DNA from: a virus
Reading direction: 5' to 3' (one strand)
IMG/VR virus record: IMGVR_UViG_3300045988_140928
Span: 64,001-128,000 of that record
DNA length: 64,000 nucleotides
Shown: in pieces, positions 3,744-22,217 of the stretch
Numbering within the stretch: the first letter of the stretch is position 1
Layout of the letters: each line of letters begins with the position of its first letter
The notes under the pieces: generated by a model
Database searches by the model: none
What the model was told of the DNA's origin: nothing
The model's input: the letters and a program-made list of their open reading frames with translations, nothing else
Program-made: the position numbers and the translations under genes

Positions 3744-4437
3744 TAATTCTCTCCTCTGCTAACTTAAAATAATCTGGATCTTTTTCAATTCCAATAAAAT
3801 TACGATTTAGGTTCTTACAAGCAACTCCAGTCGAACCGGAACCCATTACGTTATCTAATACAGTCATACCCTCATTAGTATATGTTTTAATTAGATACTC
3901 TAATAGATCAACTGGTTTTTGGGTAGGATGCACTGTCTTTGCTAATTTATTAAAATGAATAGCGTTAACTGGATAACGAGTACCTTTATTATCTGTAACC
4001 CAACCGGTTTTATAAGAACCCCAATTACTACTCTTAGTATCATTTTTAGCTTTATATGGCTTTCCCTTAAGCATTTGTGGATTATAAAGAGGAAGCCTAG
4101 GGTAAAAAATAGAAATAGTTTCAACAGCTTTTAATGGCATTTTCTTAGCATTAAGAAAACCAGAACCTCGATTTTTAATCCAATACCAATCATAACGATA
4201 CCATTTAGGATTAGATAATCTTAAACTAGATGAAAAAGGTTCGTCACCAAACAAGGCAACCACCCCACCCGCTTTTAGTAAACGTTTATACTGTTTCCAA
4301 AGCTGGTCCATTGGAATAATATGATCCCACTCATTACGAGTCGTCTCAAAAGGTAAATCAGCTAAAACCATATCTACACTATGGTCTGGTAAAGTCGGTA
4401 AAATTTTTAAACAATCATTATTATACAACTTAATCAA
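3727..4437 (-). CDS. DNA methyltransferase, N6A/N4C beta class
   Basis: Motif IV variant DLPF (VLADLPFETT) lies N-terminal. VLDNVMGSGSTGVAC (motif I) lies C-terminal, followed by FIGIEKD. Confidence 0.8.
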   Translation of the reverse strand: MIKLYNNDCLKILPTLPDHSVDMVLADLPFETTRNEWDHIIPMDQLWKQYKRLLKAGGVVALFGDEPFSSSLRLSNPKWYRYDWYWIKNRGSGFLNAKKMPLKAVETISIFYPRLPLYNPQMLKGKPYKAKNDTKSSNWGSYKTGWVTDNKGTRYPVNAIHFNKLAKTVHPTQKPVDLLEYLIKTYTNEGMTVLDNVMGSGSTGVACKNLNRNFIGIEKDPDYFKLAEERINGNMG

Positions 4438-4503
4438 CTAAAATAACCACCTAACCTAAGATTTATTCCTAGTTTAAGTGGTTTTTCTGATTAATTAAAA
4501 ATT

Positions 4504-5085
4504 TTATAGAGGAGTAGCTAAATCTCCTACCTCTAATTTTAGTCCTTTATATACTGCCTTATTTCCTGCTGTAGATCCTTGCTCACCACAATAGATTAAA
4601 AATTTATAAGGACCTTTGGATAAATTTGTAGGATCACCATTAATTTCAATAGTAACAGCAAGATCATTTCCATATACAGAGGTTGAAGTACCAAAATTAA
4701 TACTTAGATTATCATTAAATATTCCTACAACAAAACGATTAGTTATACCATTATCTACTAATAGATTAGCCTCTTTAATACTAACAGTAAATCTATCGCC
4801 ATTCCTTAAAGTCTTAACATCAATATAATACTGATTAAAACACCAATTATTATAATTTCCAGTTTCCTTAGTACCGTCAACTAAATACTCATCTGGAGGA
4901 TCCTTAACAATGTTAGGATTCTTAATCAAAGATAAATGTTTTTGTAAGCCTATCATATCAAACAAGGATAATTGATTTTCAACCTTAGTTAAATCACGAT
5001 ACCCGTCTGCTAATGTTTTTAATTGACTAGAAACAGTTGTTAACTTAGATTTTAATTCGTCATTATTATAATGATATTCAGTCAT
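4504..5085 (-). CDS. tail fibre / receptor-binding protein paralogue (short)
   Basis: AAGGAG SD. The N-terminal L..LA...R........L.L..M module is shared with 6137-7192, 7245-7790 and 7795-10998. The C-terminus is beta-rich. Confidence 0.55.
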   Translation of the reverse strand: MTEYHYNNDELKSKLTTVSSQLKTLADGYRDLTKVENQLSLFDMIGLQKHLSLIKNPNIVKDPPDEYLVDGTKETGNYNNWCFNQYYIDVKTLRNGDRFTVSIKEANLLVDNGITNRFVVGIFNDNLSINFGTSTSVYGNDLAVTIEINGDPTNLSKGPYKFLIYCGEQGSTAGNKAVYKGLKLEVGDLATPL

Positions 5086-18467: not shown

Positions 18468-20114
18468 TTACTTTTTTACTAAACCAAAAGGTTTTAAGTC
18501 TCCCACAGAAAAAATACCGAGTTCATACATAACTCTTAACATAACTTTTTGATGATCACATTGAAATTGTCCTTTTTTAGCTCTAGAGTCGTCATTAAAA
18601 TAAACATTACTCCAATCATAACCACCTGCGTCAGTCCTTATTGGATTAATAACTTTAGTATTAGGTCCCCAGTAGTCAGCACGATCAGTTATTTTTGAAA
18701 TAGCGTCTAAAGTCAAAGTCCCCCGACTTGCCGACATAATACCACCAATCAAAGGCCACATATCAAGGTTTGTATTCTGAACGTTCGCAGAATAACCATA
18801 GCCATAAATAGTTGCAAAGGTTCCATAATCAGGAATTTGTAACCCACAACCGTTATCAAACCAGATAGTCCAAGGAGTTGTAGTCCGATCTAAAGTATAT
18901 CCTGTAGGAGCATGGCGAACATTAGTCGCTTTTAGTGATTGAATCCACTGTGACTCAGTACCGTTAAAACCATTTGAAACAGCTAACTCATAAGCAGATC
19001 TTCCGTCTTTTCCAGTCTTCCCTGTAGGACCCTGTAAAGAAACTAAAACCTTACTAAAGTCCAAAGTTTCCGCTTCGTGGTCAATTTTAGCAACTTCAAC
19101 TAAGCTACCATTAGGTTGTAACAAATAATCTCCTACATTAGGTACCACATTAGAGTCAACTAATAAATCAGGGTAGCTAACAGAGGTTAAATTACCACCC
19201 AAAGTAAGTTTAGTTAAATATATTGAACGTCCTTGATCTCCTTTTGGTCCTTGCAATCCTCGTGGACCAGTTTTTCCAATAGAACCTTGAATACCTTGAG
19301 GCCCTTCTTCACCGTCAGCACCCTTAGGACCAACCGGACCTCGATCACCCTTAGAACCTTTAAGATAACTAAAGAAATCATCCTCCGTACCGGAATGACC
19401 ACTATTAAGCCAAACCTGATAAGCAGAAAGACCGTCAGAACCATCCTTACCAACAGAACCCTTATCTCCTTTGGGTCCAATAGGTCCTTGGTCTCCCTTA
19501 TCGCCCTTTGGACCTGCTGGACCCCGCTCACCTTGAGGACCAACCGGACCAATAGATCCGTCTTTACCATTTTCACCTCTAGGACCCTGTGGTCCAATTG
19601 GTCCTTGCTCACCCTTTGGTCCAGCAGGACCTATAGGACCAACACTACCAGTATCACCTTTGTCCCCTTTTGGTCCTTGTGGTCCAGCGGGTCCGGGAGG
19701 CCCTTGAACAGCAGTCGAACTACTAGACGCTATTTCCTTTCTAAGCTCATCAATAGTTATAGTACTAATTACCTTACCATTAACATTTTCAATATTATTA
19801 GCAAGATAAATACTCTTCGTACCATCATCAGGATAAATTGAATTCCTACCATTCTCGTCTGTTACCCACACCTCAAAATAGTAGTAATCAGATGGTAAGT
19901 CTTTAAACTGTTCACTACCAATATTAATTGCTTTATCCGTAACTTCACAGTCAACGTCTTTTAAGTAACCAGTTTTATTACCCATTTTTACAACAACGTT
20001 ATCACTATCGTTAAATGATACTTTATATCCTTGCTCATCCGTTAAGGTAAAGATATAAGTTCTACTTGTATCTCCCGATTTTTGCCAAATCGAATTTATA
20101 AATAAGTCTCTCAT
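18468..20114 (-). CDS. BppU-like baseplate/fibre protein with collagen stalk and C-terminal globular domain
   Basis: N-terminal Ig-like domain, then about 150 aa of G-X-Y, then a knob like those in 11553-13568, then a unique C-terminus. Confidence 0.75.
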
Positions 20115-21397
20115 TAGTAACTCAAGACCTGTCCGGGATAAATTAGGTTAGCATTTCTTAAACCATTAGTAGCTACTAAATGATTTACAGAAGTACCTAA
20201 GCGATAAGCAATTGTTGAAAGGTTATCGCCATAACGAACAGTATAAGATCTACGTTGTTGTACTTGAGCATTTCCACTAATCTTTAATACTTGACCGGGG
20301 TAGATAGTATTGTAAATACTCTTACCATTAATTTGTGCAAGAGTGTACATACTCATACCATGATCATTAGCAATCTTCCACCAGCTATCCCCGTAACGGA
20401 CAGTATAGGTTGAAGTTTGTTGAGTATTATTGTTAGCATTAGGAACTGGTTTTTGAACCTTGTTAGATACAGAATTACCTTCGCCCTTGTCAGCTACCCG
20501 AAGAACTTGTCCCGGATAGATAACAGAATTAATAGTGCTTCCATTAAGTTTAGCTAAGGCGTACATATCCATTCCATGGTCATTAGCAATCTTCCACCAG
20601 CTATCACCAGACTTAACTGTGTAATTATGGGTATCTTGATGAAGTTGCTTACCCTGTTCTGTTGCTGGAGTTTCAGTCTTAGGTTTTTGAGCATTACCGT
20701 TAGTATAACCATTATCAGTAATACCAGTTAAGTCAATATTCCGATCAAGGCCACCAGCAATCGCCGTTGAAGTAAATTGGAACATACCAATGTTCTCGAA
20801 ACTAGGGAAGAAGTTATAGTTTGGTTCTCTAGTTACGGCGTAGTTTGGATACTCAGCCAACCAGAGTTGGTACTTACTTGCTAAATAATGAAGATCAGTA
20901 TTGTTTACAAGATAGTTCTTATAGCCATAGACCATTGGAGTATATCCTGCATCTTTAATCCGTTGACAAGCATGGTCAATAGCTTGTGTATTCTGGTAGC
21001 CTGATTCTACATCCAGAGCAATAATTGAGCCTTTAGGTGTTTGTACCTTAGGTAAAAAGTAATTCAATACTTGATCTGCTTGCTGAGTAGTTGTAACATT
21101 TTGCCACCAGATGTAATTATGCGCCCGTTTACCTTGTGCAATTGCACTTCTTACTTGTGATCCATAAGTCCACTGATCATAGAGATTCCAACCGGTAGTA
21201 GTGCCACCCATCTGAATAATGGCAAACTTATCATCTGGGTAGCCAAAGATTCCATTTGCGCCCTGATATTTCGACCAATCGACACCATGGTCACCTTTGG
21301 CCGCCATTACTGTTCCAGAGGAAAGAGACATCGTTGCCCCAAGAGTTACTAAGGCTACTGTTGCAACAGCTAATTTCTTAAAATAATGTTTTCCCAT
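20114..21397 (-). CDS. endolysin: signal peptide + GH25 muramidase + 3 LysM
   Basis: MGKHYFKKLAVATVALVTLGATMSLSSGTVMA (Sec-type signal), GVDWSKYQG GH25 opening, and three YTV+GD+...IYPGQVL LysM repeats. Start set at ATG 21397. Confidence 0.85.
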   Translation of the reverse strand: MGKHYFKKLAVATVALVTLGATMSLSSGTVMAAKGDHGVDWSKYQGANGIFGYPDDKFAIIQMGGTTTGWNLYDQWTYGSQVRSAIAQGKRAHNYIWWQNVTTTQQADQVLNYFLPKVQTPKGSIIALDVESGYQNTQAIDHACQRIKDAGYTPMVYGYKNYLVNNTDLHYLASKYQLWLAEYPNYAVTREPNYNFFPSFENIGMFQFTSTAIAGGLDRNIDLTGITDNGYTNGNAQKPKTETPATEQGKQLHQDTHNYTVKSGDSWWKIANDHGMDMYALAKLNGSTINSVIYPGQVLRVADKGEGNSVSNKVQKPVPNANNNTQQTSTYTVRYGDSWWKIANDHGMSMYTLAQINGKSIYNTIYPGQVLKISGNAQVQQRRSYTVRYGDNLSTIAYRLGTSVNHLVATNGLRNANLIYPGQVLSY

Positions 21398-21488
21398 TGC
21401 TAGAGTTAGCACTAGGAGAAACTAGGTTACGGCTAGGCTATCCTAGTCTAACATTCTAACCTCCTTATATTGAATTCAATACAAGAAT

Positions 21489-21524: not shown

Positions 21525-21569
21525 AAATAAAAGAAAAACACCCTGCGCTGGAGATACCACAAGGTGTTT
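21525..21569 (-). terminator. rho-independent terminator of the tRNA operon
   Basis: Minus strand reads AAACACC-20 nt-GGTGTTT followed by TTTCTTTTATTT. Confidence 0.6.
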
Positions 21570-21659
21570 AACAGAAAAATAAGAAAAAGAAGTATAATAA
21601 TGACCAAACACTATTATACGAGGCTAAGAAGAATAAAATGAGAAAGACTTCTTAGCCAA

Positions 21660-21840
21660 TAGCAATTGCAGGAGTCGAACCTACCTAGATAGAAAACAGA
21701 TAAGATAAAGAAATTGAAAGGACTTAAGCCGTTTTATGAATATAACTCAGTCTTCTATGTATTACAGCAAAATTATTTTGAAATCCAATTTTATTGGAAG
21801 GAGGTGTTTATATAAAATCTATCTATACCACTAAATTGCT
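21660..21840 (-). ncRNA. 181-nt tRNA-capped RNA (acceptor stem + T-arm enclosing a large insert)
   Basis: 5' AGCAATT pairs perfectly with 3' AATTGCT. T-arm is GTAGG-TTCGACT-CCTGC and the D-loop-like segment is TAGTGGTA. An 8-bp helix TAGATAGA/TCTATCTA closes an insert of about 115 nt that contains CACCUCCUU. It starts 4 nt after tRNA-Arg. Confidence 0.6.
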
Positions 21841-21844
21841 ACAA

Positions 21845-21917
21845 TGTCCCGACCGAGACTCGGACTCGGATTTTCGGATTAGAAATCCGATGTTTTATCC
21901 AGTTAGACTATCGAGAC
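21845..21917 (-). tRNA. tRNA-Arg (anticodon UCU)
   Basis: Hand-folded. Acceptor GTCTCGA/TCGGGAC, anticodon arm TCGGA-TTTCTAA-TCCGA, T-arm CCGAG-TCCGAGT-CTCGG. One D-stem mismatch and no encoded CCA. Confidence 0.75.
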
Positions 21918-22057
21918 AAGTGTGCTATTAACACACATGGTTACACTTATACGTCCGAACACAAATTACAAACCAAAATAAGAAACCACTATTCAACATC
22001 AAATGTCATTAAGAAGGAAGGACCTAGTTACCATCACCCAAAGATAGCTAAGCCCAA

Positions 22058-22130
22058 TTGCGGAGACAGGACTTGAACCTGTGACCTCCAGATAATGAGT
22101 CTGGCGAGCTACCAACTGCTCCACCCCACG
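22058..22130 (-). tRNA. initiator-type tRNA-Met (CAU) with non-canonical anticodon stem
   Basis: CGTGGGGTGGAGCAGTTGGTAGCTCGCCAGACTCATTATCTGGAGGTCACAGGTTCAAGTCCTGTCTCCGCAA. It has the C1xA72 mismatch, A11:U24 and a CAU anticodon. The anticodon stem is CCAGA/TCTGG rather than 3xG:C. Confidence 0.8.
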
Positions 22131-22188: not shown

Positions 22189-22217
22189 ATAATACACCTG
22201 TCTTATCATAAAAGCAA
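22189..22217 (-). promoter_or_regulatory. sigma-A-type promoter of the tRNA operon
   Basis: Minus strand reads TTGCTT-17 nt-TATTAT, about 55 nt upstream of the first tRNA. Confidence 0.55.

Follow-up and report, generated by a model that had tools for sequence, protein, structure and literature searches.

What is encoded in the 181 nucleotides (nt) that follow a tRNA-Arg gene, after a gap of 4 nt, in the viral record IMGVR_UViG_3300045988_140928? We analysed positions 64,001 to 128,000 of this IMG/VR record, a stretch of 64,000 nt hereafter called the window. A first-pass annotation had described positions 21660–21840 of the window as a tRNA-capped RNA with a segment resembling the anti-Shine-Dalgarno tail of 16S rRNA. 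We conclude that this element is a conserved, unannotated tRNA-like RNA gene in uncultured Lactobacillus-type phages, and that it is neither a tRNA nor a transfer-messenger RNA (tmRNA). Judged from sequence comparison, it is probably a selected and expressed tRNA-like RNA. A fuller reading, in which it would be a functional phage gene for a processed small RNA with a tRNA-like cap and the anti-Shine-Dalgarno segment as effector, is plausible, and we hold it with somewhat less than even confidence.

The element can be read directly from the letters and from 17 full-length variants. It lies on the minus strand (21660–21840, 181 nt, CCA not encoded) and its ends form a perfect 7-base-pair (bp) acceptor stem, in which the 5′ strand AGCAATT (21840–21834) makes seven Watson-Crick pairs with the invariant 3′ strand AATTGCT (21667–21661). 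The discriminator A at 21660 is likewise invariant and is followed by TTGG rather than by CCA. Behind the acceptor stem lies an unpaired 8-nt analogue of the D-loop (TAGTGGTA, 21833–21826, with GG at 21829–21828) that lacks a D-stem, and then an 8-bp helix that replaces the anticodon arm (TAGATAGA, 21825–21818, paired with TCTATCTA, 21693–21686). A single G (21685) links this helix to the T-arm GTAGG-TTCGACT-CCTGC, which has a canonical TTCGA loop (21684–21668). The letters therefore bear out the fold proposed at first pass, with its perfect acceptor stem, T-arm, GG loop without D-stem and 8-bp helix. They also confirm that G3:U70 is lacking: pair 3:70 is C:G in 17 of the 17 variants. A canonical cloverleaf, with its D-stem, 5-bp anticodon stem, 7-nt loop and variable loop of at least 4 nt, is not what the element forms.

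Standing in for the anticodon arm, the 8-bp helix holds out a modular insert (21817–21694, ~25% G+C) of 124 nt, somewhat longer than the ~115 nt first estimated. The conserved portion of this insert is its first 48 nt (21770–21817), which comprise an A/U-rich linker, the motif CACCUCCUU, a hairpin and then AUUUCAAAAUAAUUU. We take CACCUCCUU to match the anti-Shine-Dalgarno (anti-SD) tail of 16S rRNA. The motif has the same letters in all variants, and its DNA form CACCTCCTT lies at 21798–21806, three positions from where it was first placed (21795–21803). Directly 3′ of it is the hairpin UCCAAU-AAA-AUUGGA (21784–21798), recovered by RNAalifold, whose stem is invariant and whose loop has 3 or 4 nt. 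The rest of the insert, its variable centre and 3′ part (21694–21769), is a swappable module (nucleotide diversity, pi, ~0.27) that comes in four size classes. Of the two small hairpins pointed out at first pass, CCAAT-AAA-ATTGG is invariant in all relatives, whereas the longer variants (CAAAATAATTTAG) lack an intact CAAAA-TAA-TTTTG.

Relatives were gathered by pattern scans and protein-anchored look-ups in IMG/VR, JGI, ENA and Logan contigs. These yielded 17 distinct full-length versions of the element in related phage contigs (individual contigs are given L-numbers below), and wherever a related contig extends far enough, the element is found at this position. The versions measure 180–183, 195, 222–229 or 343 nt. 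Common to all are the acceptor stem, the 8-nt GG loop, the 8-bp helix, the T-arm, the insert's first ~48 nt and a looser 3′ insert block; the insert centre is exchanged wholesale between size classes.

Is this conservation more than the closeness of the relatives would give? We counted variable columns over 16 distinct operon haplotypes. In the 143-residue open reading frame (ORF) upstream, 71 of 143 third codon positions vary (pi 0.196), and in the spacer between the tRNA-Met and tRNA-Arg genes of the same operon 39 of 138 columns do (pi 0.112). By comparison, variation is found in 3 of 75 columns of tRNA-Met (pi 0.012), 6 of 48 columns of the element's frame (acceptor stem, helix, T-arm and discriminator) and 2 of the first 48 columns of the insert (pi 0.015). 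The frame differs from the third positions with P = 3e-6 (Fisher), and the insert's first 48 nt differ from the third positions with P = 1e-9 and from the spacer with P = 2e-4. Conversely, 5 of 8 columns vary in the D-loop analogue (pi 0.255; TAGTGGTA, TAATGGTA, TTACGGAA, ATGTGGAA and ATATGGAA), in which only the GG and the length are invariant. Variation thus changes in sharp steps, from no column in the acceptor strand to 5/8 in the neighbouring loop and 1/8 in the next helix strand, with ~50% at synonymous sites 400 nt away. The element is conserved as strongly as tRNA-Met, and its adjoining unpaired positions evolve at the neutral rate. Purifying selection acting on a folded RNA would be expected to leave a mosaic as fine-grained as this, which would be hard to obtain from recombination alone.

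Pairing was assessed over 13 distinct frames. The seven Watson-Crick pairs of the acceptor stem are unchanged in 13 of 13, and in the 8-bp helix 100% of cells are paired, its three variable pairs shifting only to G·U. Pair 2 of the T-stem is U·G, C-G (L017, L026) or U·U (the L027/L028 type). Overall, 99.6% of cells in the frame pair, and four pairs vary one-sidedly, all to or from G·U or C-G. The RNAalifold consensus contains the acceptor stem, the 8-bp helix, the T-arm and the insert hairpin.

A separate observation concerns a 4-bp hairpin in the insert, CUGU-AAUAC-AUAG (21760–21772, minus strand), which holds the family's only two-sided change: C-G in the short forms, U-A in the long forms, and G·U to A-U in L018. 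It includes UACAU, which we take to be the cleavage motif of MazF-type toxins of Bacillus and Staphylococcus. The same small covarying hairpin region carries a 7-nt tandem duplication (ATAATAC ATAATAC) in one variant (L041:1661-1889).

Could the element instead be a relic, a tRNA gene with a tRNA-Met-like top half that was hit at the anticodon by mobile DNA and is now decaying without function, its conservation owed to a young clade and recombination? Mobile DNA has repeatedly struck tRNA genes in these phages, and it has entered the element itself, as an insertion-sequence (IS)-derived module in L038/L039; a tRNA broken by insertion would share the element's gross topology. Moreover, stems without compensatory changes, a common U·U variant and an ordinary folding energy are what a relic might display, and the element shares its 3′ end with one cellular tRNA only, a tRNA-Met. 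Specifically, the 3′ 22-mer of the element, searched across 185,579 species genomes, matches only a tRNA-Met(CAT) of the candidate phyla radiation (CPR) and one coding sequence by chance. Because this CPR tRNA-Met has the same 22-mer, a tRNA-Met-like gene may be the ancestor of the cap. However, in what is left of a standard tRNA one would expect a D-stem and a 4–5-nt variable loop to survive, and the element has neither; its acceptor stem is perfect in all full-length copies; and variation changes sharply within a few nucleotides, with the GG kept inside a variable loop. Since the element lacks D-stem and variable loop and is as conserved as tRNA-Met, we disfavour the relic explanation and consider it improbable. 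A phage attachment site (attP), in which a 3′ tRNA fragment would equal a host tRNA, was also considered and rejected, as no identical tRNA of a plausible host was found.

How might the element act? Across all variants, CACCUCCUU has a predicted mean unpaired probability of 0.73–0.89. The first-pass annotation had singled out an anti-SD-like motif, and the motif is indeed real, predicted to be unpaired and located in the 48 nt where the gene is best conserved. As a seed complementary to ribosome-binding sites it is both conserved and predicted to be accessible. We envisage that the element is co-transcribed with tRNA-Met and tRNA-Arg from a promoter 5′ of tRNA-Met. The acceptor stem would stack on the T-arm and the GG loop would dock on the T-loop, forming an elbow, and in this arrangement the tRNA-processing enzymes would accept the RNA as a substrate. 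RNase P would cut before A21840 and RNase Z after A21660, CCA would then be added, and the tRNA-like cap would give a stable RNA with defined ends. The unpaired CACCUCCUU beside its small hairpin is the candidate effector. It could pair with Shine-Dalgarno (SD) sequences (AAGGAGGUG) on mRNAs, and such pairing would stop translation initiation or adjust it, much as the C-rich seeds of Gram-positive small RNAs (sRNAs) do. That SD pairing is how the element acts is a tentative proposal that we think possible but doubtful. More doubtful still is the complete scheme of a tRNA-scaffolded regulator, in which the cap would divert RNase P, RNase Z and the CCA-adding enzyme to making an abundant, stable RNA whose anti-SD copy competes with the 30S subunit for SD sites. 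Were it correct, the initiation of translation would be controlled during infection, either globally or in a timed way.

Several observations weigh against a functional RNA with an anti-SD effector. The folding energy of the whole molecule is ordinary (z = -0.49), so thermodynamics alone does not mark the element out. The first-pass annotation had proposed covariation as a check. The available relatives keep the pairings, yet their frame stems show no compensatory double change, and one widespread variant (the L027/L028 type) has the U·U mismatch in its T-stem. The relatives are close (flanking protein 85–97% identical), which makes the direct pairing test weak; for the same reason the low diversity could partly stem from recent recombination. 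Shuffle controls do not separate structure from plain conservation. Replacement of the insert centre by IS-derived DNA is tolerated. Finally, no mRNA in the 64-kb window pairs with the motif beyond the generic SD, so that any action would be generic or aimed at host mRNAs, and an abundant anti-SD RNA would strike the phage's own SD sequences too.

The tolerance of foreign DNA in the insert suggests another possibility, that the cap itself is the active part. The acceptor stem, T-arm and elbow could act as a top-half tRNA decoy that soaks up or recruits a tRNA-binding protein, with the insert mostly tolerated as cargo. Candidates for such a protein include abortive-infection toxins of the AbiEii/MenT nucleotidyltransferase type, which modify the acceptor end and are common in lactic acid bacteria, as well as SmpB, EF-Tu and the CCA-adding enzyme. 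Under a decoy it is understandable that the frame is conserved (6/48 variable) while the insert centre has been swapped four ways, IS-derived DNA included, and that the topology equals that of the SmpB-binding tRNA-like domain of tmRNA. The idea also gains weight because the same genome has a second conserved tRNA-like RNA, of 59 nt (31519–31577), that has no anticodon arm; both RNAs carry A1:U72 and a discriminator A. Nevertheless, the best-conserved stretch of the element is the first 48 nt of its insert (2/48), which a pure cap decoy would not need, and we regard a decoy as a minority possibility.

The 59-nt RNA is of interest in its own right. Encoded on the plus strand, it has the acceptor stem AGGGUAG/CUACCCU, a D-arm and a T-arm, and the Rfam tRNA model matches it at 43.9 bits across a deletion of the 13-nt anticodon stem-loop, whereas ARAGORN does not detect it. 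Conserved copies occur in L004 and L019, the latter with a single G·U to A-U change in the T-stem.

Could the conserved motif be a feature of the DNA or of the other strand? On the plus strand the motif reads AAGGAGGTG and might serve as the ribosome-binding site of a micro-ORF (MKFYL...) antisense to the element and tRNA-Arg. An ATG indeed stands 4–6 nt past AAGGAGGTG in most variants. It is, however, ATA or ATT in four (the window, L001, L016 and L017), and the micro-ORF ranges from 7 to more than 20 codons and crosses the most variable 8 nt of the element. Moreover, it runs antisense to a block of minus-strand genes, and we saw no plus-strand promoter. This explanation is very unlikely.

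To gauge how often such a structure arises by chance, we scanned for the combination of a T-arm, its loop reading TTCRANN, and a directly adjoining terminal helix of seven unbroken Watson-Crick pairs that closes 60–300 nt. Both strands of the 64-kb window contain one match, the element. Shuffled sequences (dinucleotide-type, n=200) contain 0.055 matches per shuffle (one match in each of 11/200), a figure that covers the pattern alone and leaves out the 4-nt distance from a tRNA and the conservation in relatives.

Of the standard detectors named at first pass, neither ARAGORN (tmRNA and intron modes) nor Rfam recognises the element. At default settings ARAGORN reports two tRNAs only in this region; its intron (0–300 nt), metazoan-mitochondrial (D-armless) and tmRNA modes give nothing credible, and relaxed thresholds give junk only. 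All models of Rfam 15, at the gathering threshold and at E <= 10, place no family on the element, whether in the window, the long variants or the IS-bearing variant. When the region was compared by blastn with GenBank phages, tRNA-Met matches alone were returned and no homology to rnaC or rnaD of phage T4, and in the literature we found no described family of phage tRNA-like RNAs or anti-SD sRNAs like the element. Genes of this kind are overlooked by ARAGORN and Rfam, the standard annotation tools.

Is the element a miniature tmRNA? In that case the cap would be aminoacylated and enter stalled ribosomes with SmpB, and a tag would be translated from the short frame in the insert. Comparison with E. 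coli ssrA bears out the resemblance to the tRNA-like domain of tmRNA that was noticed at first pass. Both have a 7-bp acceptor stem, a GG in an unpaired D-loop analogue (positions 13–14 in E. coli, 12–13 in the element) and, for the anticodon arm, a long helix that runs nearly straight into a canonical T-arm; both have a large internal domain. Most variants also have a stop-free frame after an A/U-rich stretch. The features that make a tmRNA are, however, absent. The element has C3:G70 in place of G3:U70, no conserved tag ORF, no encoded CCA and about half the size of tmRNA; no pseudoknots were found; and both the tmRNA mode of ARAGORN, relaxed settings included, and the Rfam tmRNA models (E <= 10) are negative. 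The calls that ARAGORN made at relaxed settings were spurious, borrowing the end of tRNA-Met. As for the tag, the short frame GCU GUA ... GCU UAA first pointed out is present in the window, giving AVIHRRLSYIHKTA*, but as a tag it is not conserved: it varies from 6 to 22 codons, is lost in L038, is cut to 6 codons in L041 by the tandem duplication, and ends neither in hydrophobic residues nor in Ala-Ala. L018 and L002 share the nucleotides CAAAGTTCCTTT but read them in different frames. With length and phase varying in this way among variants, coding of a tag or small protein by the insert was rejected. A miniature tmRNA is largely refuted, and we give it hardly any credence.

Is it then a tRNA with an intron? 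The insert sits at the usual site of tRNA introns, and group I introns occur in phage genes and in bacterial tRNA genes, and the first-pass annotation had allowed that the insert might be spliced out to leave an ordinary tRNA. Removal of the insert would leave exons without a D-stem, with an 8-bp stem and a 1-nt variable region, which is no ordinary tRNA. Furthermore, the insert, at 124 nt and ~25% G+C, is too small for a group I core and is not conserved at its centre, no catalytic core of a group I or group II intron is indicated, as no Rfam intron model matches at E <= 10, and the intron mode of ARAGORN (0–300 nt) is negative by default and yields junk when relaxed. An intron-bearing tRNA can be set aside as extremely improbable.

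Are there precedents for such an RNA? Bacteriophage T4 encodes RNA D and RNA C, stable RNAs directly after its tRNA-Arg whose role has been unsettled since the 1970s (PMC3014915, PMC9697503); accumulation of RNA C was demonstrated by Northern blot (PMC9697503). Like the element, RNA C (species 1 RNA, rnaC) and RNA D are encoded within a phage tRNA cluster just after tRNA-Arg(TCT), which in T4 adjoins the homing endonuclease gene segB. RNA C (139 nt) also has a canonical T-arm (CCGGG-UUCGAAU-CCCGG) that abuts a terminal helix, with non-tRNA sequence between. The two share no sequence similarity, the likeness being one of architecture and position only. Unlike the element, RNA C has two U·U mismatches in its terminal helix, two closed hairpins instead of one helix with a long open insert, no anti-SD motif and a Gram-negative host, and it folds very stably (z = -4.6, versus -0.5 for the element). 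By this analogy, we regard the element as an independent Gram-positive-phage example of the T4-type tRNA-cluster RNAs, at the same position beside tRNA-Arg. That phage tRNA clusters also encode other stable RNAs, such as RNA C and RNA D, has been known for 50 years; what the element adds is a concrete effector motif. This candidate (an invariant anti-SD segment, predicted to be unpaired) is testable, and the exchanged centres provide a natural insert-swap series. If the candidate proves right, it would by analogy be the first mechanistic lead on the role of the T4-type RNAs.

The arrangement has an artificial counterpart in engineered tRNA scaffolds, which carry a recombinant RNA in the place of the anticodon arm (see also PMC3753655). 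Like the element, they keep the acceptor stem, T-arm and elbow, bear their cargo on the anticodon stem, and are processed and stabilised by the tRNA enzymes of the cell. They differ in being artificial and having a D-arm, whereas the element is natural, lacks a D-stem and has a partly conserved cargo. Replacement of the anticodon arm by a recombinant RNA was reportedly the design of Ponchon and Dardel. If the element is expressed and processed, phages use the tRNA fold as a carrier of regulatory RNA, a design that bioengineers reached independently. Other non-tRNA RNAs are freed from tRNA units by tRNA-processing enzymes, among them the 3′ETS-leuZ sponge of E. coli and the tRNA-miRNA chimeras of MHV68, but these are spacers or hairpins beside a tRNA and not inserts within a tRNA-like fold. 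YrlA and related bacterial Y-RNA-like RNAs contain a tRNA-like module and occur in phages. YrlA is permuted, however, so that its ends form the Ro-binding stem rather than an acceptor stem, and the Rfam search gave no YrlA match on the element.

The element is the third gene in a small minus-strand unit. The first is tRNA-Met(CAT) (22058–22130; 56.3 bits), and tRNA-Arg(TCT) (21845–21917; 58.5 bits) follows after 140 nt; both were identified by ARAGORN and Rfam. From the discriminator of tRNA-Arg to the start of the element there are 4 nt (TTGT). All three genes have the same A|TTG 3′ context, and CCA is encoded in none. A promoter-like TTGCTT-17 nt-TATTAT, read from the letters, stands 5′ of tRNA-Met (22189–22217); a promoter consensus scan of the window did not flag it. 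The distant relative L022 (flanking protein 49% identical) has TTGACC-17-TATTAT at the corresponding site, followed by tRNA-Met, and its contig stops before the element; a search of IMG/VR with the L022 tRNA-Met gave no match. In P0018/L049 (flanking protein 35% identical) there is no tRNA operon. Downstream of the element, a conserved trailer (21531–21657, minus strand; pi 0.018–0.04) contains two strong hairpins, GGCTAAGAAG..CTTCTTAGCC (21657–21622) and GTATAATAGTG..CATTATTATAC (21619–21592), and then a terminator-like hairpin, ACACCTTG..CAGGGTGT, with the T-run TTTTTCTTTT (~21569–21531), whose loop exceeds the limit of the terminator scanner used. The letters thus agree with the first-pass placing of the element in a promoter-to-terminator unit with tRNA-Met and tRNA-Arg, both ends being recognisable as promoter-like and terminator-like.

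The trailer hairpins, of 10–11 bp, are as conserved as the tRNAs, and the Met-Arg spacer (21919–22056, minus strand, 138 nt) holds hairpins too; trailer or spacer could yield a further small RNA through tRNA processing. A kissing interaction between the hairpin loop AAUAAAAU and the trailer loop AUUUUAUU was considered and dropped, as it is not kept in L001-type variants. The tRNA-Met has a C1 × A72 mismatch like that of bacterial initiator tRNAs, but the base of its anticodon stem lacks the three G-C pairs; the Rfam model numbers the non-canonical pair 1:71. The T-stem of the element, GTAGG/CCTGC, equals that of an Enterococcus initiator tRNA found in L021.

Three loci illustrate how mobile DNA meets tRNA genes in these phages. 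In L014:3730-4600 (and also in L007), a cassette of ~800 nt splits tRNA-Arg(TCT) in the anticodon loop and brings with it a different, intact tRNA-Arg(TCT) (3786–3859, 70.8 bits) and an HNH endonuclease gene (3878–4585). From its sequence this looks like intron-less homing with its own replacement tRNA, parallel to segB beside the tRNA-Arg of T4. In the window, a tnpB gene of the IS605 family (29763–31157, plus strand; 389 residues, Pfam OrfB_IS605 and Cas12f1-like TNB) abuts with its downstream end a tRNA-Asp(GTC) (31093–31150) that has no 5′ acceptor strand. As this tRNA-Asp is intact in L019:3409-3484 and clipped beside tnpB in the window, the mobile element evidently truncated a phage tRNA gene. 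The third locus is the 343-nt version of the element itself (L038/L039:3306-3648, partial in L040), in which ~200 nt replace the centre. Of these, 107 nt are 91% identical to window positions 30955–31061, just 3′ of tnpB, and the replacement looks like a miniature IS605-derived module, resembling a palindrome-associated transposable element (PATE) or an omega-RNA, inside a tRNA-like gene.

Which phage does the window come from? The flanking endolysin (GH25 and LysM) has its nearest counterparts in Limosilactobacillus fermentum phages, and the DNA polymerase shares 54% identity with the polymerase of L. fermentum phage LfeInf (Herelleviridae). From these similarities we assign the window to an uncultured Herelleviridae-like phage of Lactobacillaceae. 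LfeInf, the nearest cultured relative, lacks a tRNA at the syntenic site; over the first 50 kb of its genome the frame pattern matches only its two tRNAs and one chance site, with no counterpart of the element. The flanking 143-residue protein has no homologue among GenBank phages.

The start of the endolysin gene, which is the next one downstream of the element, is unusual in its own way. Its start codon (ATG 21397–21395 or GTG 21412; region 21395–21470, minus strand) has no SD sequence of its own. A strong AAGGAGG at 21466–21460 serves instead a mini-ORF of three codons, ATG TTA GAC TAG (21454–21443), and the CTAG-rich stretch between mini-ORF and endolysin could fold (UUAGACUAGGA with UCCUAGUGCUAA), bringing the SD near the endolysin start. 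The arrangement recurs in L027 and may represent translational control of lysis. Directly downstream of the endolysin, an ORF of 548 residues (18468–20114, minus strand) with long collagen-like Gly-X-Y repeats probably encodes a tail fibre.

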